Positions 5,750 to 27,337 are shown, numbered from the stretch's first letter. The stretch is 28,035 nucleotides of DNA from Thermoplasmata archaeon (GCA_030039995.1 JASHUL010000082.1:1-28035); one strand, 5' to 3'. A program made the numbers and translations. Notes: a model not told the origin generated them from the letters alone.

Positions 5750-7672
5750 CTACGCTAGGTTCGAGTTCTGCAGCAATACCCGGTACCGTGGGTCTCTTCG
5801 GACCCCCTCGAACACGGGATCATACCGTAACGTATGGAACATGATGGTGTGCGTCTCCTTGGCCTTGTTCAAGCATCGAATCGCGTCGTCCACGTCTCCT
5901 ATCGCACCGTAGAGCCACGCGCAAGAGAACGAGTCGAACTCGGGCTGCGGGAGCGATTCATCCGCACGAAGAATCGCGCGACACCGTTCCTTCTCACCGG
6001 AGAATGCGTAGTACTCTGCCCGGAGCGCCTTCTTGGTATCGGGATCCGTCGCGTGGTCTTCCCGCCAACGGATTTCCTCGAGCAATGGTTCGTACTCCCG
6101 TCGAAAGCGGTGGAAGTTGGCCAAGTCGTGATGGAATTCCCGTCCCTCGGGTTGCAGCTCGCCTAGCTTCTGAATCCGGGCGAGAGCCTCGTCGTACTTC
6201 CCGAGCCACCCGAGCAGTAGAGCATGGTGGGAGAGGTTGAACGGCGAAAGGGGGTCAGAAGCTTCGGCCAGAGCCCACTCGGCTTCCGCCTCGTTAATAC
6301 GAGCCTGCCAGGAAAGCAACTCCGCGTACCAGTGATGCGCCTGCGAGTAACTGGGGTTGAGGGACACAGCCCGACGAAACTCCCTCTCCGCTCCCTCAAA
6401 GTCGTAGGCTCGCCAAAGAATTCCTCCCACCGAGGCATGCGCTTCCGCGAGGTTGGGGTCCAGTTCTACGGCTCGCAGTGCCAACTCCCGACCGGTCGCG
6501 TCGGCCGCTTCCCTGGAGATTCCGAAGGAAGACGGCCCATGCAACACGATCAGGTCCGACAGACCGGAGACCGCCGCGGCATTCTTGGGATCCAACGAAA
6601 TTGCGAGGTCGAACTGCTCTTTTGCCGCCTGGTACGAGCTTTCGCTCTGCTGATGCAGCAACGCTCGCCCTTTTAGATAGGCGAGATAGGAGTCTGACCG
6701 CGTTACGGGTTTCGACTCGAGTCGAGCCTGCTCGGTCGGTCCCAGTTTGACTTTCAGGCCGTCGGCTACCTGCCGCGCGATCTCGGCCTGCACGGCAAAC
6801 ACATCGTCGAGTTCCCGGTCATACGTAGTCGCCCAGAGGTGTCGGTCCGAGCGGGCGTCGATGAGTTGTGCGGTCACTCTGAGACGATTACCGGCCTTCC
6901 GGACGCTGCCCTCCAGGATCGATGTGACGCCCAATTCGGTGCCAATTTGAGACACCGACTTGGGTGTCGCCTTGTAGAGCATCACCGACGTCCGAGAGAT
7001 GACACGGAGCTCTTGTATCTGGGACAGCACCGAGATCAACTCCTCCGTGAGACCGTCCGCGAAGTACTCGTCCTTCGGGTCGGGACTTATGTTGGTGAAC
7101 GGAAGGACCGCGATACCGGCTGGCGTCGGAGTGGCCGCGGCTGACTCGCGCGCGTTCCACGGCAGCACCACTCGGTAGACGTCGATCGGAACCGCTACGC
7201 CCTTGAGAAGGGCCGAGGGGAGCTTCTCGAGCCTGTCGGGGATCTTGTTCCGGACCTGCTCCTGGACGGCCGCCGAGATGCAGATACCCCCCGGTTCGGC
7301 GAGAGGCTCGATCCGGGCGGCGACGTTGACCGCATCTCCGAGGATGTCGCTTCCCTGAGCCACCACGTCGCCGAGGTGAACCCCGATTCGGATCCGGATC
7401 GGAGCGGAATCTCCCTCCGCGTTCCGCTCATGGATCCGCCGCTGGATGTTCACCGCACATTGGGTCGCCTTGAGGGCGCTGTCAAATTCGACCAGGATCC
7501 CGTCTCCCGTCGATTTGATCTCGCGACCCTGATGGATCGCGAGGAGCGGACGGACGAGTTCCTGTTGCCGACGGAGTAGTTCGAGACTCGCGCTCTCGTC
7601 GCCCTGGGTCGAGGCCGTGAAACCGACCGTGTCGGTGAACATGATCGCGGACAGCCGACGGGCCGACGTCAC
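5750..7672 (-). CDS. Class III adenylate/guanylate cyclase + TolB-like domain + TPR repeats; 640 aa
   Basis: MFTDTVGFT, EIKSTGDG and DILGDAVNVAARIE (catalytic and ATP-specifying residues). TolB-like segment IAVLPFTNISPDPKDEYFADGLTEELI. TPR-like helices (DPNLAEAHAS, NPSYSQAHHWYA). TTAATC box about 22 nt upstream of the GTG. Confidence 0.92.
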   Translation of the reverse strand: MTSARRLSAIMFTDTVGFTASTQGDESASLELLRRQQELVRPLLAIHQGREIKSTGDGILVEFDSALKATQCAVNIQRRIHERNAEGDSAPIRIRIGVHLGDVVAQGSDILGDAVNVAARIEPLAEPGGICISAAVQEQVRNKIPDRLEKLPSALLKGVAVPIDVYRVVLPWNARESAAATPTPAGIAVLPFTNISPDPKDEYFADGLTEELISVLSQIQELRVISRTSVMLYKATPKSVSQIGTELGVTSILEGSVRKAGNRLRVTAQLIDARSDRHLWATTYDRELDDVFAVQAEIARQVADGLKVKLGPTEQARLESKPVTRSDSYLAYLKGRALLHQQSESSYQAAKEQFDLAISLDPKNAAAVSGLSDLIVLHGPSSFGISREAADATGRELALRAVELDPNLAEAHASVGGILWRAYDFEGAEREFRRAVSLNPSYSQAHHWYAELLSWQARINEAEAEWALAEASDPLSPFNLSHHALLLGWLGKYDEALARIQKLGELQPEGREFHHDLANFHRFRREYEPLLEEIRWREDHATDPDTKKALRAEYYAFSGEKERCRAILRADESLPQPEFDSFSCAWLYGAIGDVDDAIRCLNKAKETHTIMFHTLRYDPVFEGVRRDPRYRVLLQNSNLA

Positions 7673-13050: not shown

Positions 13051-13285
13051 ACGTCCCGGGACACGTGAGCTCCCGGAGCTACGGATCGGTCCACGCACCG
13101 GTGACGGGGGATACCCTACCATGGGCTGATTTCGAAGCCGAGTTGGCACGACTCCACGTAGTTTCTCCGCGGGACGGGCTTTCCACAGAAAATTGGCCTT
13201 CCCGTCGTTTCGGGGGGCGTTTACTCGCCCGACCGTAGATTTCACCGCTCGCACGACTTTTAGAGGTCGGATGTATCCGACCACC

Positions 13286-15244
13286 GTGGCGACCGGGCGC
13301 CGCCTCGCGGCGGTGATGTTTACCGACACCGTAGGGTTCACCGCCTCGACGCAGGCGAACGAGGGGCGCACGCTCGACCTGCTCCGCCAGCAATCGGAGT
13401 TGTTGCGTCCGCTCCTGACGCTCCATCAAGGCCGAGAGATCAAGTCCACCGGTGACGGGTTCCTGGTCGAATTCGACAGTGCGCTCAAGGCGGTCCGATG
13501 CGCCGTGAACATCCAGCGCAGCATCTACGAGAGGAATTCCGAAGCGCCTCAGAGCACCATTCGGATCCGCATCGGGGTCCACTTGGGCGATGTGGTCCAG
13601 AACGGCTCCGATATCCTCGGGGACGCCGTGAACATCGCGGCCCGCATCGAGCCGCTCGCGAACCCCGGCGGAGTGTGCGTCTCGGGAGCCGTCTACGAAC
13701 AGGTTCGCACCAAAGTCACGGAGAAGTTCGAAAAGCTGGAGGCGAGGGCCCTGAAAGGCGTCGAGCTGCCGATGGATGTCTATCGTGTCGTCCCCTCCTG
13801 GGAGGAGAACGGCGGGAAGGACGGAGGGGGCTTCCCCCACTCCCTCGACAAGGCGCGGGTCGCCGTGCTCCCCTTCGATAACATCAGCCCGAACCCCGAA
13901 GACGAGTACTTCGCGGACGGATTGACGGAGGAGCTGATCTCGAACCTCTCCCTGGTTCCCGGTCTGAAGGTCATCGCTCGGACGTCGATCCTCGGCTACA
14001 AGAAGGGCGAGAAGTCGGTCGCCGCGATCGGAAAGGAACTCGACGTCGGCACGGTGGTCGAGGGCAGTGTCCGTCGCGCGATGAACAAGATTCGGGTCAC
14101 CGTCCAGGTGATCGACGTCGCCACCGAGGAGCACCTTTGGTCGGCCAAGTACGACGACGATCTCGCCGACATCTTCGCGGTCCAGAGCGATATCGCCAAC
14201 AAGGTGGCGACCTCACTTCCGGGCGATCTACTGAAGCCGCAAGCTCCGGTCCCCGAAGTCGAACGCCCCAAGGAGACCGAGGCGTATCTTTCGTACCTTC
14301 AGGGCCAGGCGCTCATCTGGAAGCGGGACGAGGCCCCGCTGCGGAAATCCCTCGAGCACTTTCAGAAGGCGATCGAGAGCGACCCGACCTTTGCCCGAGC
14401 GTATGCCGGGATGGCTCGGGTGTACATCAACCTGGGCGTCGAGGGATACCTCAGCTGGGGCGGTTCGATCGAGATGGGGCAGGCGGCCGCCGAGCGAGCG
14501 GTCCGCCTGGACCCCGACCTGGCCGAGGCGCATGCGACCTTGGGAGAGATCGCCTTCATGGCGGACGATGCCGCGGAAACCTTGGACCGAGAGCTCCGAC
14601 GGGCCCTGGAGCTCAATCCGAACCTCACGCATGCCCACAGCATCCTGGGCGCGCTGGCAGGGTCTTTCGGAATCCTGGAGCCGTACCTCCTCGAAAACGA
14701 GGAGGCGTATCGATTGGACCCGCTCTCGCCCCCGATGATCCGGCGCCAGGGCGAGGCGCTGTTCAATTCGGGGCGTTACGAGGAGGCCGCGGCTCACTGG
14801 AAGGCGAATCTCGGAAACGACCCGATCGACGCCTATCGTGGCTTGGCGGAACTTCACATGCTCCGGGGCGAATACGACCAGGCGGACGCGATGGTGCGCG
14901 AGCTGGAGCGGCTCGCGCCGAGTAGCGACGGCGCCTTGCTGTCCCGGGGGTACCTCGCCGCACTGAGCGGGGACCGCGACACGGCCCTCCGCATGATCGA
15001 TCGGATCGCGGAGTTGTTCAAGAAGGGGTCTTCCCGTCAGTCGTCGATCGGGTACATTTACTACGCGCTGGGGGACACGGATCGGTTTTTCGAGTACATG
15101 ATGGCCGCGGCGAAGAACCACACCCTTCAGGCGGTGCGCGTCCGCCTCTGCCCGCTGTACGCGGCAGCCCGGAGAGACCCCCGGTTCGTGATGATGATCA
15201 TTCAGGCCGGTCGCCCCATGCAGGCCTCCAAAGCGCATAACTAG
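13286..15244 (+). CDS. Class III adenylate/guanylate cyclase + TolB-like domain + TPR repeats (paralog 2); about 652 aa
   Basis: MFTDTVGFT, EIKSTGDG, DILGDAVNIAARIE and VAVLPFDNISPNPEDEYFADGLTEELI, then TPR-like helices. Start moved to GTG 13286, 22 nt after TTTTAG and collinear with the N-terminus of paralog 1; ATG 13271 is possible. Confidence 0.92.
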   Translation: MATGRRLAAVMFTDTVGFTASTQANEGRTLDLLRQQSELLRPLLTLHQGREIKSTGDGFLVEFDSALKAVRCAVNIQRSIYERNSEAPQSTIRIRIGVHLGDVVQNGSDILGDAVNIAARIEPLANPGGVCVSGAVYEQVRTKVTEKFEKLEARALKGVELPMDVYRVVPSWEENGGKDGGGFPHSLDKARVAVLPFDNISPNPEDEYFADGLTEELISNLSLVPGLKVIARTSILGYKKGEKSVAAIGKELDVGTVVEGSVRRAMNKIRVTVQVIDVATEEHLWSAKYDDDLADIFAVQSDIANKVATSLPGDLLKPQAPVPEVERPKETEAYLSYLQGQALIWKRDEAPLRKSLEHFQKAIESDPTFARAYAGMARVYINLGVEGYLSWGGSIEMGQAAAERAVRLDPDLAEAHATLGEIAFMADDAAETLDRELRRALELNPNLTHAHSILGALAGSFGILEPYLLENEEAYRLDPLSPPMIRRQGEALFNSGRYEEAAAHWKANLGNDPIDAYRGLAELHMLRGEYDQADAMVRELERLAPSSDGALLSRGYLAALSGDRDTALRMIDRIAELFKKGSSRQSSIGYIYYALGDTDRFFEYMMAAAKNHTLQAVRVRLCPLYAAARRDPRFVMMIIQAGRPMQASKAHN

Positions 15245-19234: not shown

Positions 19235-19447
19235 ATGCGCTACGAGGAGTTTCGTACGGCGATCCGCGAATATCTGACGTCACACCCCCACGGCGCGACG
19301 TGGACGGAGCTCCGGTCCGAGCTGGGAATGACGTATCGGATACCTTGCCCCACGTGGGTGGCCCGGCTGGAGCACGAGATCGGTCTCCTCCGGACTGGTG
19401 GGCCTCGGGGGAAGGTCTGGACGGTCCGAAAGCGACGATCGAGGTAG
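19235..19447 (+). CDS. Small basic winged-helix-like hypothetical protein; 70 aa
   Basis: MRYEEFRTAIREYLTSHPHGATWTELRSELG...GKVWTV, a helix-helix-helix-wing pattern. TTAAGA box 27 nt upstream of ATG 19235. Confidence 0.65.
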   Translation: MRYEEFRTAIREYLTSHPHGATWTELRSELGMTYRIPCPTWVARLEHEIGLLRTGGPRGKVWTVRKRRSR

Positions 19448-19451
19448 GACC

Positions 19452-20702
19452 CTGACGCCCGAAGCGATCCACATCTCGATCGGGCAGGTCCGCCGGCTTT
19501 CGATTGCGAAACAACACCTCGCGGGGCCGAGGCCCGCCCGTCCGGACCGGAAATCGATGCTGGACGTGGTTCGGGACACCGGGTACATCCAGTGGGATCC
19601 GGTCAACGTTGTCGCGCCGGCACACGAGCTCGCGTTCTGGAGTCGGCTGGGCGACTATCGCCACGCGGACCTGGAGCGCCTCATCTGGAAAGAGCGGAAA
19701 CTGTTCCAGGGCTGGGGGCATGCGGCGTCGCTGTTGCTGACGGAGGATTATCCTCTCCACTACTCACTGATGCGTCGGTATCCCGACTGCCTTTCCGACT
19801 CCTGGGGGAATTGGAAACGGCACGCGAAAGCGTGGCTCCCGAGGCACCGCGCACTTCGCCGGGCGATCCTGAGAGAGCTCGGAAAGGGGCCGCGGACCGT
19901 CAGTCAGTTCCCCCGTCACGCGAAGACACGGCGACGCGGCGACGCCTGGAGCTCGTGGAGCGACGTCTCCGCGATGCTGTTTCATCTCTGGATGGCCGGG
20001 GACGTGATGATCTCGGGCCACGAGGGCCGGGCGAACCTGTGGGCGCGGACGGAGGCGTTCCTGCCCACGTGGGCGAAACGGGAAACGCTGCCCGCCGACG
20101 AGGTCGAGCGTGCGCTCGCCCAACGGGCGCTGCGGGCGCTGGGCGTGGCCTCCGCACGGGAGATCAACGTAAGCTTCCCGAACGGACACTACCTGAATCT
20201 GAAGGCGAATCTCGCGAAACTCGTCAAAGACTCGGTCGTCATCCCCGTACGGATCGAGGGGCTGAATTCGAAAGAGACGCGCTACGTCCATCGGGACGAC
20301 GTCTCCCGCCTCGAGTCGCTCTCGGGCGACGGGGAGGAGCCGCGGACGACGATCCTGTCCCCCTTCGACAACTTGATCTGTCTGCGGGCCCGGGTCCACG
20401 AGCTCTTCGACTTCGAATTCTCGCACGAGAACTACGTGCCGCGGGAGAAACGCAAGTACGGGGTGTACGTGATGCCCCTCTTGCGGGGCGACCGATTCGT
20501 GGGTCGGATCGCTCCCCGGATGGACCGGGAGCACCGACGGTTGATCGTCGAGAGCTTCCACACCGAGGGATCCGGACCGGTCGACCCCGGGGCGGCCGTC
20601 GACGTGGCGGATCAGATCCGGGGGTTGGGCCAGTTCCTTGGGGCGGACGAGGTGGTCTACCCGAACAAGTTGCCGAAAGGCTGGCGTCGGGCGCTGAACT
20701 AG
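19452..20702 (+). CDS. YcaQ/AlkZ-family (HTH_42) crosslink-repair DNA glycosylase-like protein; about 416 aa
   Basis: QxD motif in GYIQWDPVNVV, LSPFDNLI, and ELFDFEFSHENYVPREKRKYGVYVMPLLRGDRFVGR. Start uncertain: CTG 19452 after GAGGT, or GTG 19398 overlapping the upstream gene. Confidence 0.88.
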   Translation: MTPEAIHISIGQVRRLSIAKQHLAGPRPARPDRKSMLDVVRDTGYIQWDPVNVVAPAHELAFWSRLGDYRHADLERLIWKERKLFQGWGHAASLLLTEDYPLHYSLMRRYPDCLSDSWGNWKRHAKAWLPRHRALRRAILRELGKGPRTVSQFPRHAKTRRRGDAWSSWSDVSAMLFHLWMAGDVMISGHEGRANLWARTEAFLPTWAKRETLPADEVERALAQRALRALGVASAREINVSFPNGHYLNLKANLAKLVKDSVVIPVRIEGLNSKETRYVHRDDVSRLESLSGDGEEPRTTILSPFDNLICLRARVHELFDFEFSHENYVPREKRKYGVYVMPLLRGDRFVGRIAPRMDREHRRLIVESFHTEGSGPVDPGAAVDVADQIRGLGQFLGADEVVYPNKLPKGWRRALN

Positions 20703-20789: not shown

Positions 20790-21626
20790 ATGCCGTGGAA
20801 ATACACCGATGACTACTACCGGGAATACACCCGGACCACCTGGAACGACAGTGCGGAAGCGTACCTCGGGCTGTTGACCCGCTTCGAACCGTTTCGCGCG
20901 AAGGTCGTGGAGCGGCTCGCCGCGCGCCCCGGCGAACGGGTGCTCGACCTCGGTACCGGGCCCGGCGAGCCCGCGATGACCCTCGCCGTCCAGGTCGGGT
21001 CCCAGGGACACGTGACCGGGGTGGACCTCTCGGAGAAGATGATCGAGATCGCGCGGAAGGTCGCGAACTCTCGACGGCTCCGTAACGTCGACTTCCAAGT
21101 GATGGATTGTTCCTCCCTCACGCTGGCCGATGCGTCGTTCCACGCCGCGACGTGCTGCTTCGGGTTTCAGATCTTCACCGACCCCGAGAAGGCCGCGCGG
21201 GAAACGTACCGCGTGCTGAAACCCGGGGGACGGGTCTCGGTCTGCGTGTGGAGCACGGGCGACAAGGTCCCGTTCCTGCACGCGATCATCGAGCCGATGC
21301 TCGAGCACGCGGAACCCGACGAGACGGGGTATCTGCCTACGCCGTACGAGACCGGCGGCCCCGGCGAGATGGTCGCGTTCCTCGGAGCGGCGGGGTTCCG
21401 CGGCGGGACGGAGCATCATCTGGTGCAGACCCTGCGTTACGACTCCCCGGACGACTACCTCCAGTCGATCCTCCAGGGAACTCCGATCGGTCACTCGCTC
21501 TCGGAGGAGGACCCGAAGACCCAGCAGGAGATCCTCCAGAAGACCCGCTCGAACCTGACCCGCTGGACGACGTCGAGCGGAGTCGGTCTTCCGGCGGAAT
21601 GCGTGGTCGTGACCGCGGTCAAATAG
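20790..21626 (+). CDS. Class I SAM-dependent methyltransferase (UbiE-like fold); 278 aa
   Basis: VLDLGTGPG, VTGVDLSEKMI, ASFHAATCCFG and VLKPGGRV. CATATA box 28 nt upstream. Confidence 0.9.
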   Translation: MPWKYTDDYYREYTRTTWNDSAEAYLGLLTRFEPFRAKVVERLAARPGERVLDLGTGPGEPAMTLAVQVGSQGHVTGVDLSEKMIEIARKVANSRRLRNVDFQVMDCSSLTLADASFHAATCCFGFQIFTDPEKAARETYRVLKPGGRVSVCVWSTGDKVPFLHAIIEPMLEHAEPDETGYLPTPYETGGPGEMVAFLGAAGFRGGTEHHLVQTLRYDSPDDYLQSILQGTPIGHSLSEEDPKTQQEILQKTRSNLTRWTTSSGVGLPAECVVVTAVK

Positions 21627-21709: not shown

Positions 21710-23263
21710 ATGTCCAACGATTCCGACGCGGCGCGCATTTGGCGCGACCGCGAGCAGCGAAGGGCGGTCGAGCGGGCCCGGATCGATGAAGAGCGGACCG
21801 ACCGTCGTCGAGAGCTCGGGCGGCTCGGTGGCAACCCCGACGGGCTGCCTCCTTCCCCCGAAGACCCGGGACCCCCATCCGCTCGGACCTCGAGTTCGGC
21901 GCGACCGTCCGGCGCCGTGACCTCCTCGTCCGGCGCGGTACCCGAGGGAGCCCATCGCGGCGGCGCTCCGCGGGAAATCGGGGGAGCGCTCCGACCCCCG
22001 TCGCTGCAGGAGTTCCTTCAGACCAATCCGATGGAGCGGTTCAACATCCTCGCGCTCAACGCTCAACGGTTTCCGGAACTGCTCGAGGCGGCCCGGGGGG
22101 ACGCGCTCCTCCTCGCCGCGATCGCGCGCCAGACCGAGGCGCTGATGGCACGGGTGAAGGAGGAGGTGGACGACCCGCTCAGCGCCGGAGCGTTCCTTCG
22201 CGACCAAGTGTATCGCTGGTATCGGGACAGCCCCGGCGAGGACGACTGGTCGGAGCGAATGTCCGACTGTTGGGCCGGACTGTTCGCCGACTCCCGGGTG
22301 AGTGGAGGCCGTCTGCAGCCCTGGCTCAATCTCCGACTCGGAGCCCTCCATGCGCAGGCCTCCCGATCGGGGTCGCTCGGGGGTCGGATGCGAGACAGCC
22401 TGCGGCGGAAGCGCCCCGCGGAGGTGGCCGTCGGCCGATCGACGATCCAGCAGATCCGCGCGGAAGTCGCCCAGGCGATCCTGGACGACCTGACCCGCCG
22501 CCGTCGGGATCCGGAGGGGCCGGTGCCGCTGGTCCACCTCAGCGAGCTCGCGATCCGTCGTCAGGTCGCGACGATCAACGACGTGCTCGCGCAGCTCTTC
22601 AACGGCCCCGAGACCGGGCCGTTCATCGTCCTCCACCCGAACCGGTACCCCGAGTGCGACGAAGTGCAGATCCGACCGCCGGTCGGGAACGTCATGGGAG
22701 CCGCCCTCGCCTACAGCCTCTCCACGGGGCGTTCGAGCCGGAAGCCCGTCGGTCGGACCCGCGGCCCCGCCGAGGCGGGAGTCCCCGCCGCGGGGGAGAG
22801 CCCGGACGACCCCGGCACGGACGACTCCGAGGAGCTCGACTCCTCGACGATCTGGGAGGCGGACCGTGTCGATGCCTCCGTGTGGCGTCGCGTGATCAAG
22901 GAACGCAAGCGCGAGCGCCACCGACTCGACACTCCCCCCAAGGACTGCCACGGTCGTAGCGCCTACGGGCCGCTGCGAACCCTCGTCCTCGAGGACACCG
23001 AGTTCCGCCAGTCGTTCCTTGCGGTGAAATGGCGGGGTCGTCCGGCGGGCCTCCCTCTGCTGTGCGCGCTCCTGCAGAAAGGGACGCTCGCGCCCGAGGT
23101 GGCGACGGACCACGAATACCTCGAAGCCGAGCTCGGCGACCTCGCGAAGGGCGACCCGCAGTGGCATCCGCCCGACCACACCTGGGCGATCGGCGAGTGG
23201 ACGGTCGCCCGCGAAGGCTCTCACGGCGAGGGGTTCCGTTTCACGGCCCAGCGACGCACGTAG
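21710..23263 (+). CDS. Hypothetical protein; 517 aa
   Basis: Long ORF with GC-biased third positions and a protein-like composition from MSNDSDAARIW onward. AAACCATTAAG promoter-like element at 21651-21661. The track's extension to 21107 overlaps the methyltransferase and was trimmed. Confidence 0.75.
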   Translation: MSNDSDAARIWRDREQRRAVERARIDEERTDRRRELGRLGGNPDGLPPSPEDPGPPSARTSSSARPSGAVTSSSGAVPEGAHRGGAPREIGGALRPPSLQEFLQTNPMERFNILALNAQRFPELLEAARGDALLLAAIARQTEALMARVKEEVDDPLSAGAFLRDQVYRWYRDSPGEDDWSERMSDCWAGLFADSRVSGGRLQPWLNLRLGALHAQASRSGSLGGRMRDSLRRKRPAEVAVGRSTIQQIRAEVAQAILDDLTRRRRDPEGPVPLVHLSELAIRRQVATINDVLAQLFNGPETGPFIVLHPNRYPECDEVQIRPPVGNVMGAALAYSLSTGRSSRKPVGRTRGPAEAGVPAAGESPDDPGTDDSEELDSSTIWEADRVDASVWRRVIKERKRERHRLDTPPKDCHGRSAYGPLRTLVLEDTEFRQSFLAVKWRGRPAGLPLLCALLQKGTLAPEVATDHEYLEAELGDLAKGDPQWHPPDHTWAIGEWTVAREGSHGEGFRFTAQRRT

Positions 23264-24275: not shown

Positions 24276-25088
24276 TCACGCGGACGCGAACGCCTCCGCG
24301 ATGCGGCTGTAGACCAGGTTCTTCCCCTTGGCCGGCGGGAGCGTCGGCTGGTCGATGCTCGCGTCCAGCAGCGTCCACGAGCCGTCCGCGCGCACGCCGC
24401 GCGAAGAGATCGCGAGGCGGAAGTGATTCATCGCGCTCAGGGTCGGGGCGTCGCTGATCGCGGGCAGGAGTCCGATCTCCTCCCCGGCGTAGAGCAGCTC
24501 CACCAGTCGATAGAGGAGCTCGTTGCGGTACTGGTTCGTGCTGCCGCGGCAGAGGATCAGGGTGCGTCCCTGCTGGTCCGACAGGAACCGGCTCGCCAAC
24601 GTGTCGACGGCGGCCTTGGTGATCAGCCGGTGGATACCGGTCCCTCGCGGCTCGAGGACGTCCCCGAACGGGCGGACCGGCACGGAGATCGGGTCGATCT
24701 TGCCGGTGGCCTTCGGGAACTTCTTGTCGAAGTCGAGCGTCGCCGACTCCACGTCGACGAACCGAAGCCGACCGTTCCGCATCGCGTCGAAGGGGATCAC
24801 CACCGTGTGGTTCGCGATCGTCGGCCGGTTGTACTCGTCCGCGACCCCCCGGCCGAGGATCGAGAGGAGCACCTCCCGATTCGCCGGGGCCGGGTGGATC
24901 ATGCGGGCGTCGATCACCGTGCCGCCGCCCGCCGTCTTCTCGACCCGCACCGGCGTGAAGTGGTTCTCGAGGTACCGCATGTAGAGCGGGCCGTTCAGCC
25001 CGCGGGACTCCGCCTTGATCCCGTACCCCTTCTCGTGGCTCGCGCCGTAGATCCAGTGCTCCAGCGGGAGCACCGTCTCGTCATTCAT
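24276..25088 (-). CDS. GTPase-associated protein (GAP1-N2-like; possibly DENN-like); 270 aa
   Basis: HWIYGASHEKGYGIKAESRGL and DEYNRPTIANHTVVI resemble my recollection of the GAP1-N-type signature (Y-G...G-Y-G-x-x-A-x-S; D-x-x-x-R...H). It lies between two GTPases and has a strong GGAGGTG Shine-Dalgarno. Confidence 0.65.
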   Translation of the reverse strand: MNDETVLPLEHWIYGASHEKGYGIKAESRGLNGPLYMRYLENHFTPVRVEKTAGGGTVIDARMIHPAPANREVLLSILGRGVADEYNRPTIANHTVVIPFDAMRNGRLRFVDVESATLDFDKKFPKATGKIDPISVPVRPFGDVLEPRGTGIHRLITKAAVDTLASRFLSDQQGRTLILCRGSTNQYRNELLYRLVELLYAGEEIGLLPAISDAPTLSAMNHFRLAISSRGVRADGSWTLLDASIDQPTLPPAKGKNLVYSRIAEAFASA

Positions 25089-25136: not shown

Positions 25137-26162
25137 TTAGGCCGTCGCGGTGGCGGGCGCCGCCGGGGTCTGGAGCGTCGTCTGCTCCACGATCTCGTCG
25201 GGCACCTTGTTCGCGACGTCGCGGAAGTGCTCGATGAACGCGACGTAGTCGTCGTAGGAGAAGTCCGGCTCCGCTCCGCCCTCGGCCGAGAAGCCCTTGC
25301 GGACGATGCGCGGCACCCCGATCGGCTGCATGCCGGCTTCCGCGGTCTCCGTCCGGACCCAGCTGAAGAAGTACGCCGCCTGGTCGAAGTTGACCCCGGC
25401 GACCTTGCCTCCGCGGATCTGCGAGAGCGTCTGGGGCATGAAGACGCGGAGCAGCGCCTCGGCGTACTCCTTGCGCTTGCGCTTTTGCTTGCCGTCCGGG
25501 ACCCCGCGGTGCAGCCCGAGCTTCACCAGGACCTCGTCCCGGATGGAATCGAACTTCGACAGCACGATCGCCGGGTAGATCACCGGGTTGCCGACGCTGA
25601 GCCCCTGCGCCTTCATCCGCGAGAACTCCTGCTTCTTGTACGTCTGGAGCGAGACGAGGAGCGAGGCGACCTCGCTGTCGTACTTCAGCATCTGGCGGAA
25701 GACCGGGGAGTCGATCTCGGTCGTCATCTTGCTGCAGTCGACCAGCGTGACGACGACGTGGCTCTTCAGGAGCTGCTGGATGATCGGACTCGCGGCGACG
25801 CCGGTCTCGATGAACTCCTGGACATCCTCGCCCGAGACATCGAACGCGGCGAACGAGAGCTTGGCGAACGGATTCACCCAGTTCTTGTCCTTCAGGGACG
25901 CCGGGAGCCGGCCCGCCAGGGGCTTTCGGTATCCGAAGACGAAACCGATCTCCGTCATCTCGTCCTTGAGCGTGGCCCCGGGGAATCGGGCGTCCTTCAT
26001 CCCCTCGTAGACCTGGCTCATCAGACGCAACGACTGGAGCGGGGCGTGGAATCGAAACGAATCCGACACCCGAGTTCCGTACTTCACCTGGGCCGCGTAG
26101 AGCAGCCCGAGGAAGGTCGTCTTTCCGCACGCACGGTCACCCAAAATCGCCGCTGGACACAT
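25137..26162 (-). CDS. TRAFAC-type P-loop GTPase (double-GTPase-system-like), predicted active; 341 aa
   Basis: G1 GDRACGKT, G2 Thr in RFPGAT, G3 DVSGE, G4 SKFD. AAGGAG precedes the ATG. Confidence 0.88.
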   Translation of the reverse strand: MCPAAILGDRACGKTTFLGLLYAAQVKYGTRVSDSFRFHAPLQSLRLMSQVYEGMKDARFPGATLKDEMTEIGFVFGYRKPLAGRLPASLKDKNWVNPFAKLSFAAFDVSGEDVQEFIETGVAASPIIQQLLKSHVVVTLVDCSKMTTEIDSPVFRQMLKYDSEVASLLVSLQTYKKQEFSRMKAQGLSVGNPVIYPAIVLSKFDSIRDEVLVKLGLHRGVPDGKQKRKRKEYAEALLRVFMPQTLSQIRGGKVAGVNFDQAAYFFSWVRTETAEAGMQPIGVPRIVRKGFSAEGGAEPDFSYDDYVAFIEHFRDVANKVPDEIVEQTTLQTPAAPATATA

Positions 26163-26186: not shown

Positions 26187-27167
26187 CTACGAGGGCCAAG
26201 AGTCGCTCGACCGCTCTTGTGCGGGGTCGCCCCAGGGCGACGTGCGCGAAGGGGACGAACACTCGCCCCCCGTAGGACCGTGAAGGAAGGCGAACGGGGA
26301 CTCCGCCCCGACGAGAGACTCCTCGGACCCGAGCGGTTGGTCAAAGACCGCGCCCGAACGGGAGGTGTCGGGCTCGTCGCTCGAGCGCCGGCTCGTCTGT
26401 TGGATCTCCCCACCGAGGATGCGGAGCACGCGCTCCGTCCGGGCCAGCCGCGCGTCGAGGGCGCTCAGCTGCGCGCTCAAGGTGTCGAGGGACTCGTCGG
26501 CCTCCGGGTCCGGTTCTCCCCGAGGGGTGGCGGGGGCCATCGGAGGCGGAACGATCCGGTGCAGCTCGGTGATCGTGAGGGTCCGGATGGCGAGCCCCAC
26601 CCCGACAAGGTCCGGAGCCGCCGACGCCTGGACCTCGGCCGCGAGCCGGTCCCAGTCGGGTTCTCCGGAGTCGGTGTTGATGCGCGCGAGCACGGAAGGG
26701 ATCGCTCCCTCCAGCGTTCGAGCGACGAGCGCTCGGACCTCCTCCTCGGACTTTCCGAGAAGATTCTCCGACGCCATCGAAAGGAAGTTCGGCATCGCGG
26801 GGACCTTGGCCTGCGCCTGAGCGCGGACCTCCCAGCCCGACGCCCGGTTCCCCTCGAGCGCATGCATCGACCGGACGGTCACGTCGACCACGACGGGCGC
26901 GAGCGAGAGATAGCCCACCCCGCGGTCCCAGGGGGCGACGAGCACCCGACCGCCGACCACGATCTTCGGCCGGCGGACCGTGACGTCGAACGGCATCACG
27001 GTCGGGTCGGGAGCGGACCGGGGGGCCTTCCGCCCGAACAGCACGAGCGCCCGGTTGGGGGGGACCTGTACGCTGCACCGAGTGTAGGCGACCCAGAATC
27101 CTCCTGCGATCGCGGCCGCGATGCCGCCGGCCTCGGCGAGCTGCCAGGCTAGATCGATGAACGCCAC
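26187..27167 (-). CDS. Flotillin-like SPFH-domain membrane protein with a shortened coiled-coil tail; about 326 aa
   Basis: N-terminal TM, then VPPNRALVLFGR, KIVVGG, ASENLLGKSEEEVRALVARTLEG and AAEVQASAAPDLVGVGLAIRTLTITEL, all matching flotillin SPFH patterns. Start moved to GTG 27167. Confidence 0.85.
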   Translation of the reverse strand: MAFIDLAWQLAEAGGIAAAIAGGFWVAYTRCSVQVPPNRALVLFGRKAPRSAPDPTVMPFDVTVRRPKIVVGGRVLVAPWDRGVGYLSLAPVVVDVTVRSMHALEGNRASGWEVRAQAQAKVPAMPNFLSMASENLLGKSEEEVRALVARTLEGAIPSVLARINTDSGEPDWDRLAAEVQASAAPDLVGVGLAIRTLTITELHRIVPPPMAPATPRGEPDPEADESLDTLSAQLSALDARLARTERVLRILGGEIQQTSRRSSDEPDTSRSGAVFDQPLGSEESLVGAESPFAFLHGPTGGECSSPSRTSPWGDPAQERSSDSWPS

Positions 27168-27337
27168 ATTCTGCCTTGCCACACCCCGGAAGGGACGCCG
27201 TGCGCGGCAAGCGCGCGGCGCTCCTGGTGCCAACGGTCGACCCGGGCGGCGTTAGCAGACGCGGTCTCTTGGTCCGAAAAAAGTCCGAAGTGGAAGAGGC
27301 CGGGTCCGACAGAGTCCCCGCTCATTGGGCCCGTCAT
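27149..27337 (-). CDS. Possible small leader protein of the flotillin-GTPase operon; 62 aa
   Basis: MTGPMSGDSVGPGLFHFGLFSDQETASANAARVDRWHQERRALAAHGVPSGVWQGRMWRSSI*. Purine-rich GGAGGGAAG upstream, a TATTTAT box at about 27418-27412, and a 19-nt overlap with the flotillin start. Confidence 0.35.
   Translation of the reverse strand: MTGPMSGDSVGPGLFHFGLFSDQETASANAARVDRWHQERRALAAHGVPSGVWQGRMWRSSI

Follow-up and report, generated by a model that had tools for sequence, protein, structure and literature searches.

A small archaeal protein encoded between two GTPase paralogs is a remote GAP1 relative with a predicted longin-DENN fold

What does a protein of only 270 residues do between two GTPases? 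The question is raised by a 28,035-nucleotide stretch of DNA from a Thermoplasmata archaeon (GCA_030039995.1, JASHUL010000082.1:1-28035; hereafter the window), where a gene on the minus strand (24276-25088) sits between genes for two GTPase paralogs. A first-pass annotation, made from the sequence alone, had suggested that its product may be a minimal prokaryotic DENN-like GTPase regulator. Our analysis supports a related answer: the protein is a remote, truncated, stand-alone form of GAP1, the protein that accompanies the GTPases of double-GTPase (DO-GTPase) systems, and its predicted fold resembles that of eukaryotic DENN proteins. DO-GTPase and GAP1 were defined by Kaur, Burroughs, Iyer and Aravind (2020, eLife, PMC7159879), who speak of "a few archaea", a Thermoplasmata species included, and never mention DENN or longin. 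A literature search found no paper linking GAP1 to DENN and no experimental DO-GTPase study; the systems were predicted by comparative genomics. New here are a minimal archaeal variant of the DO-GTPase/GAP1 system and, as supported by structural models, a link to eukaryotic DENN.

We asked whether the gene is real. The window has a G+C content of 57–72%, and long spurious open reading frames (ORFs) are therefore common. The ORF starts with ATG and encodes 270 residues. We found 213 homologs at E<=0.001; among the 120 matches listed, identities are 69–96% and the named ones are all "hypothetical protein" of Thermoplasmata archaeon. Across 42 representatives with a mean identity of ~25%, conservation reaches 90% or more at G21-Y22, D84, R88, H94, R188, and P215. 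Because homologs are many and motifs are conserved at such a low mean identity, we conclude that this is, despite the high G+C, a real gene, and under selection. The motifs quoted in the first-pass annotation all occur in the translation: YGASHEKGYGIKAES (residues 14–28), DEYNRPTIANH (84–94), FLSDQQGRTLILC (168–180), NELLYRLVELLY (189–200), and HFRLAIS (222–228). The gene also lies where it was said to lie, flanked by two GTPase paralogs (Table 1).

Comparisons of predicted structures placed the protein next to GAP1. Among AFDB clusters, it was matched by large bacterial GAP1-N / DO-GTPase2 proteins over their first ~260 residues (E 4e-10 to 1e-7), under the names "GTPase-associated protein 1 N-terminal domain-containing" and "Double-GTPase 2 domain-containing". 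In a shape search of the ESM Atlas, GAP1 clusters were the closest structures, with template modelling (TM) scores of 0.60–0.68 over 223–255 residues. The matched clusters carry PF20013 (GAP1-N2) and PF20014 (GAP1-M), sometimes PF20052 (GAP1-C) or PF20012 (GAP1-N1); PF20013 is annotated on 16% of the nearest cluster. Judged by these models, the closest structures to the protein are not eukaryotic.

We then compared the family with GAP1-N2 proteins of the same archaeal class. When 301 class genomes were searched with PF20013, the matches were 530–560-residue proteins of another family (f20), never at the loci of the 270-residue family. The f20 proteins are encoded directly downstream of transmembrane DO-GTPase genes that pass Pfam cut-offs in the loci scanned, and one of them itself passes the GAP1-N2 cut-off. 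Six f20 proteins, anchored as a GAP1-N2 set by this member and by the adjacent DO-GTPases, were aligned over their first 300 residues with the profile of the 42 representatives, using hhalign. The probability was 97.4% (E 9.5e-12, 232 columns), and a negative control against a GTPase alignment gave 0.18%. The motif LEHWIYG...GYG..AES is paired with DQ.LYGW...GYQ.I..S., and D84/R88/H94 with the invariant D79/R83/H90 of the GAP1-N2 set. PF20014 (GAP1-M) has no match in the genome; the structural and hhalign alignments nonetheless run through the GAP1-M region. GAP1-C is absent from the protein. Because of the hhalign probability and the aligned motif pairs, we read the 270-residue protein as a truncated GAP1 of the N2 type that consists of just the N2 part and, probably, the M part. 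The connection with double-GTPase systems, already drawn in the first-pass annotation, is thus borne out by fold and by profile.

The predicted fold was examined in an AlphaFold2 (AF2) model built on 32 homologs. Its mean predicted local distance difference test (pLDDT) was 73.7 and its predicted TM score (pTM) 0.79; ESMFold2 runs, made as part of a complex job and independent of AF2, gave a pLDDT of 83–85 for this chain. The first half of the model is longin-like. By DSSP it has strands at 6–15, ~21–28 (poorly modelled), 61–67, 72–80, and 91–99 and helices at 34–40, 100–104, and 110–123, in the order beta-beta-alpha-beta-beta-beta-alpha, the region of strand 2 being of low confidence. In VIA-align, residues 3–141 matched the Lokiarchaeal Roadblock-Longin protein 8yqg with Z 6.1 over 112 residues, followed by the longin domains of VAMP7 (Z 5.7) and Lst4 (Z 5.0); longin matches span 90–112 residues. 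The second half has helices at 158–170, 185–200, 217–222, and 257–268 and strands at 175–179, 225–228, and 238–242, and carries the conserved R188, P215, and W238. Residues 149–270 matched the C-terminal domain of folliculin (FLCN): 3v42 (Z 5.4, 114 residues) and 6nzd_H (Z 5.4, 109 residues). The order of strand, helix, and strand that had been guessed for this region by eye corresponds to strand 175–179, helix 185–200, and strand 225–228 of the model.

Searches with the whole model returned DENN proteins from several libraries. Against the PDB, Foldseek put TagF (1.3e-5), C9orf72 (7.6e-5), and DENND1B with Rab35 (3e-3) on top, followed by further TagF entries, FNIP2 in FLCN complexes, and the Lst4 longin, with FLCN/FNIP2 and Lst4 within the top 15. 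Against Swiss-Prot models, DENN proteins made up 28 of the 30 best matches (E 7.6e-6 to 2.8e-3): DENND2A-D, MTMR5/13, DENND1A-C, DENND3, SCD1, and Crag, and also DENND10, DENND11, AVL9, and C9orf72. The matches were co-linear over both domains in VIA-align, with Z 7.8 for TagF (217 residues, root-mean-square deviation 5.0), 6.9 for DENND1B (222 residues), 6.6 for DENND1A (225), and 6.4 for DENND10 (214). No dDENN domain follows: the chain stops at residue 270, and only one helix (257–268) lies beyond the core. These results support a DENN-like predicted fold, a longin followed by a DENN core.

The other two of the 30 best Swiss-Prot matches were the N-terminal 256 residues of mycobacterial SaeB. 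Residues 3–256 of the M. smegmatis protein (A0QNH5, "putative ESX-1 scaffolding and assembly protein SaeB") match the model (Foldseek 2.3e-5). Going by its model, SaeB, a named mycobacterial protein, may start with the same GAP1/DENN-like module.

What, then, are the GTPases on either side? The operon runs on the minus strand in the order flotillin/SPFH-like gene, GTPase A, the 270-residue gene, and GTPase B, with gaps of 24–48 bp; a convergent orphan gene, here called CONV, lies beyond GTPase B (Table 1). GTPase A has the motifs of an active enzyme, G1 GDRACGKT (Walker A), a switch-I Thr, G3 DVSGE, and G4 SKFD, intact in all loci examined, and D108, G111, and E112 of DVSGE are invariant in 20 orthologs. 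It scored 21.7 bits (E 1.8e-4) against Pfam DO-GTPase2 (PF19993) and 16.3 bits against PF19975, both under the gathering cut-off of 27 bits. Its ESM Atlas neighbours are DO-GTPase2 clusters. A Walker-B glutamate is the mark of the DO-GTPase family (Kaur et al. 2020, eLife, PMC7159879). Because of the sub-cut-off Pfam scores, the Atlas neighbours, and the Walker-B Glu, its sequence marks GTPase A as a likely divergent DO-GTPase, that is, a TRAFAC GTPase carrying the Walker-B Glu. The AF2 model of GTPase A (pLDDT 77.5) shows a GTPase domain that bears a long helical insert, with a small beta-alpha unit at the C terminus. Its matches are generic TRAFAC GTPases only (atlastin, GBP1, MglA, and Gtr1; E about 1e-4 to 1e-3). 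A Rag-like nature of GTPases A and B, with a C-terminal roadblock, was considered and found unsupported, the GTPase A model giving only these generic matches. GTPase B has a degenerate Walker A (GDRGSGLT) and keeps G4 (TKFD). Its G3 motif and switch-I Thr are gone in every locus examined and the P-loop Lys is gone only in this genus. Since neither G3 nor the switch-I Thr survives in any examined locus, GTPase B is, by its motifs, a conserved pseudo-GTPase.

Table 1. Features of the locus, with positions in the window
Feature	Coordinates	Strand	Basis
GAP1-like 270-residue protein, longin + DENN core	24276..25088 (span includes stop codon)	-	ORF, motifs, homologs, AF2 model, fold matches, hhalign
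Longin-like (uDENN-like) half, residues 1 to ~140	24669..25088	-	DSSP and longin matches
DEYNRPTIANH motif, loop between longin strands 4 and 5	24807..24839	-	Translation, conservation, hhalign
DENN-core-like alpha/beta half, residues ~149-270	24279..24644	-	FLCN C-terminal domain matches
GTPase A, active paralog, 341 residues; likely divergent DO-GTPase	25137..26162	-	Pfam, ESM Atlas, motifs, AF2 model
GTPase B, pseudo-GTPase paralog, 312 residues	23297..24235	-	28% identity to GTPase A (E 1e-34), degenerate motifs
Flotillin/SPFH-like protein, operon head, true start uncertain	26187..27233	-	NCBIfam FloT E 3.3e-11
CONV, convergent orphan gene, 517 residues, ATG 21710	21710..23263	+	Retained adjacency across gene orders

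The 270-residue gene and GTPase A occur together. A profile search of the whole library gave 66 clusters at 50% identity, and 33 of the 301 class genomes carry the gene; GTPase A is present in all 33. Only two genomes have the GTPase alone: one is a case at the end of a contig, and in the other the match is weak and partial. Within the genus, 11 of 28 genomes have the gene. The 17 same-genus genomes that lack it are at least 90% complete, and in five genomes of the genus that are without the gene the GTPase is missing as well. Adjacency is kept while gene order changes: with D for the 270-residue gene, the triad reads A-D-B in this genus and B-A-D in the families f27 and f29; elsewhere the order is D-A-B. 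A tblastn search against plasmids and phages gave no match, and thus no indication that known mobile elements are carriers. The picture is that of an accessory, often lost module that is not obviously mobile. One genome of the same genus (G266) has two copies of the whole system (C10:3406-4200 and C21:13982-14770), with 71% and 63% identity to the 270-residue protein. Conservation within the operon is very uneven. Within the genus, identities are 91–96% for GTPase A, 70–78% for the 270-residue protein, 46–57% for GTPase B, 51–57% for CONV, and 44–51% for the flotillin-like protein; toward another family, GTPase A is 67–69% identical versus about 30–35% for GTPase B.

Distant relatives of the protein are fused to other modules: a TIR domain (P0164, L022:884-2239), AAA+ ATPases (P0130, P0132, and P0157, one of them with an additional DUF835), and a HerA/DUF87-like ATPase (P0146, L023:6001-7785). 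The last fusion follows a DO-GTPase2-like gene, with a Roadblock/LC7 gene and a GvpD-like ATPase gene just upstream on the opposite strand. P0146 had been a candidate GTPase fusion and was dropped as such, its N-terminal half being HerA/DUF87-like, not GTPase A-like. Because of the strict linkage and the family fusions, we infer that the protein binds the GTPases.

How might it act on them? The most conserved patch of the family, common to GAP1-N2 proteins, is D84-E85-x2-R88-x5-H94. R88 lies between model strands 72–80 and 91–99, the longin strands 4 and 5. In the C9orf72 partner SMCR8, the catalytic Arg147, equivalent to FLCN Arg164, is found in the longin betaL4-betaL5 loop (bioRxiv 10.1101/2020.04.16.045708). 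Since the model places D84, R88, and H94 in the loop that bears the FLCN/SMCR8 catalytic Arg, we favour the role of GTPase-activating protein (GAP), with R88 as a candidate arginine finger on the strength of the model. The protein would dock on the active GTPase A, probably within a pair of GTPase A and GTPase B, and control the nucleotide cycle of GTPase A. Most likely it would activate the GTPase by inserting Arg88, together with Asp84 and His94, into the active site, Arg88 acting like FLCN Arg164 or SMCR8 Arg147. Pseudo-GTPase B would be the dimer partner, and output would pass through CONV and also, within this genus, through a membrane scaffold, the flotillin-like protein. The biological role may lie in conflict and defence or in membrane stress. 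Overall, a truncated GAP1 with a longin-DENN fold that docks on and controls GTPase A, preferably as a GAP, is in our judgement the probable explanation, with a fair share of the probability left to others. A prediction of the complex between GTPase A and the 270-residue protein, made with custom alignments, scored 0.07 against a mark of 0.32 and speaks neither for nor against binding.

The same patch could be a binding surface instead. The protein would then read the state of the GTPase pair and relay it to a sensor or effector (CONV or the flotillin) as a non-catalytic coupler, speeding neither hydrolysis nor exchange. In Kaur et al. (2020, PMC7159879), GAP1 is the constant "third component", by which the switch is coordinated with sensing, and fusions to TIR, AAA+, and HerA-like modules are typical of adaptors. 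TagF, the best solved match, is a post-translational regulator of type VI secretion, for which the portion of its literature at hand notes no GTPase substrate. However, the 270-residue protein lacks GAP1-C, the part that Kaur et al. suggested as effector recruiter, and the portion left is just the one whose invariant Arg falls, by the topology of the model, in the arginine-finger loop. We regard this coupler role as possible, yet clearly less probable than control of GTPase A by the truncated GAP1.

The place of the patch also bears on nucleotide exchange. A guanine nucleotide exchange factor (GEF) that releases GDP from GTPase A mainly through its DENN-core half, as DENND1 does on Rab35, has in its favour the full-length co-linear matches, which are DENND1A/B GEF domains solved with Rab35, the many DENND-type GEFs that form most of the Swiss-Prot matches, and the conserved R188 of the core. 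But conservation is strongest in the longin loop and not in the core, dDENN is absent, and there is no indication that these GTPases require a GEF. An exchange activity is thus unlikely.

Several observations weigh against a GAP1 with a longin-DENN fold and an arginine finger. Residues 17–56 of the model have a pLDDT below 50 and are poorly defined. TM-scores against DENN proteins stay below 0.5, and Z values of 6–8 are "middling" on VIA-align's own scale. The core half alone matches RecA-like helicase lobes with Z 6–7, as well as it matches DENN, and by itself is a generic fold. Because of this, the DENN assignment rests on the co-linear matches over two domains and on the dominance of one family in three libraries. 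In sequence searches, hmmscan assigned no Pfam family to the protein at E<=10, PF20013 has no match in it, in its genome, or in 74 relatives, and an hmmsearch of PDB sequences with the family profile gave chance hits only, with no DENN, FLCN, or TagF chain among them. NCBIfam and PADLOC likewise gave no match to the protein, nor did Pfam DENN-family profiles in the 42 and 32 relatives. R88 is equated with the FLCN/SMCR8 arginine by the topology of the model, not by residue-level superposition. A GP motif ahead of longin strand 2 has been proposed as a mark of GAP-type longins (PMC12290439); it is not family-wide here, G33-P34 being present only in the genus and lost in distant members. The family-wide motif near that site is G21-Y22. 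Finally, eukaryotic longin GAPs act as heterodimers of two longin-DENN proteins, whereas the locus has a single longin-DENN gene. The compact uDENN plus cDENN protein of the first-pass annotation therefore stands by structure, with a longin half and a DENN-core half in line, and not by sequence, where no DENN profile matches. It is also minimal, as proposed, with 270 residues and no dDENN, and C9orf72, DENND1B, and FLCN are indeed among its structural matches. Common ancestry with eukaryotic DENN is putative: the models give a likeness of fold, with no link in sequence.

Could the likeness to DENN be coincidental? A longin and a Rossmann-like domain might have been arranged in this way independently of eukaryotic DENN, in a TagF-like protein that scaffolds or represses a membrane complex and does not act directly on the GTPases. 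The missing sequence-level link and the TM-scores to DENN proteins agree with this. So does a 2026 paper (PMC13392464) that takes the DENN fold to be widespread in the tree of life, in a passing remark on DENN-fold proteins in Bacteria and Archaea that it leaves there. Such a look-alike leaves unexplained why the gene strictly co-occurs with the GTPases and stays adjacent to them when gene order changes, and also why DENN-family proteins dominate three independent structure libraries; we give it very little credence. Control of GTPase A by a truncated GAP1 with a longin-DENN fold remains the reading that we prefer.

Two further genes may belong to the system. The 3' end of CONV is 33 bp from GTPase B, and CONV stays convergent beside the system after gene-order change, with 35–57% identity in two to three families. 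Its N-terminal region is of low complexity and rich in Arg and Ser; neither Pfam nor the ESM Atlas gave a match. CONV is a possible fourth component, as sensor or effector. A convergent 504-residue gene in locus L023 was tried as a CONV relative and rejected, showing no BLASTP similarity to CONV. The flotillin-like protein matches FloT with a score far under that model's own cut-off (Table 1). Its gene adjoins the system in loci L016 and L017 and is linked only within this genus; with this query, no counterpart was found at the loci of other families. The operon genes scanned have no FNIII, GASH, or known effector domain, and the neighbouring genes scanned have no match to a secretion-system family.

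Just upstream of CONV are genes for an AlkZ-like DNA glycosylase (19398-20702, +) and a UbiE/COQ5-type methyltransferase (20790-21626, +). In other families, too, CONV has a gene of this sort close by, AlkZ-like in L019 and methyltransferase-like in L009, suggesting that the synteny is old and not due to a recent insertion. Elsewhere in the window, two genes (5750-7672, -, and 13193-15244, +) each encode a protein that joins TPR repeats to the catalytic domain of an adenylate/guanylate cyclase.

The DENN, folliculin, and C9orf72 modules, through which Rab, Rag, and Arf GTPases are controlled, are disease genes. If GAP1 proteins are prokaryotic relatives of DENN, DO-GTPase systems gain a biochemical hypothesis, namely an arginine-finger GAP acting on a pair of active and pseudo-GTPase. 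A soluble archaeal protein of 270 residues with two small partners would then be a far simpler longin-DENN model than the eukaryotic complexes. More speculatively, GAP1-N and GAP1-M of double-GTPase systems might be true homologs of the longin-DENN module and share its arginine-finger loop. In that case the DENN-type regulator with a GTPase/pseudo-GTPase dimer would be of prokaryotic (largely conflict-type) origin and not a eukaryotic or Asgard invention, and the 270-residue protein would be near the minimal functional form. We hold this wider proposal tentatively, as rather doubtful at present. Zhang et al. (2012) were aware of the DENN and dDENN domains in eukaryotes alone, as parts of the DENN module. 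Profilin-longin-like domains that occur with GTPases in conflict systems are noted, as unpublished observations, in a 2026 preprint by the Aravind group.

How does the system compare with known ones? GAP1 of the GAP1-N2 type (PF20013, PF20014, PF20052) is likewise encoded beside paralogous DO-GTPase-like genes. Profile-profile homology extends over about 230 residues, the predicted fold is that of GAP1-N2 plus GAP1-M, and the motifs h-h-YG...GY...S and D-x3-R-x5-H are held in common. The differences lie in size and in partners. GAP1 proteins have 530–1100 residues; the protein here has 270, lacks GAP1-C, a fused effector, and a transmembrane segment, and is invisible to Pfam models. Its partner GTPases are without zinc ribbons or transmembrane helices, one being a conserved pseudo-GTPase by its motifs, and in place of an FNIII-repeat component there is the orphan 517-residue neighbour and, in this genus, the flotillin. 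TagF (PDB 9t0n, 6iz8, 2qnu) is the best solved match over both domains and, like our protein, is prokaryotic and of similar size. No TagF model matches the 270-residue protein at E<=10, however, and the scanned genes include no secretion-system neighbours.

Eukaryotic DENN proteins (DENND1A/B, the Rab35 GEFs, PDB 3tw8 and 6ekk; DENND2, DENND10, C9orf72-SMCR8, FLCN-FNIP) have the same order of longin and core and a genetic partnership with a small GTPase; by the topology of the model, the conserved R88 would also share its place, between longin strands 4 and 5, with the arginine of FLCN and SMCR8. The archaeal protein differs in having no dDENN, no similarity detectable by HMMER, and no family-wide GP motif. 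It comes from one gene, not from a heterodimer of two DENN-like proteins, and its partner is a DO-GTPase-like pair, not a Rab, Arf, or Rag. Asgard archaea have operons that combine a DENN protein gene with genes for a Rab-like GTPase and for a Roadblock protein resembling LAMTOR1 (Liu et al., bioRxiv 10.1101/2020.10.19.343400). There, too, an archaeal DENN-type protein is genetically linked to a small GTPase. The Asgard proteins are recognised as DENN-domain proteins, whereas the likeness in Thermoplasmata is detectable by structure only and appears within the GAP1/DO-GTPase lineage.

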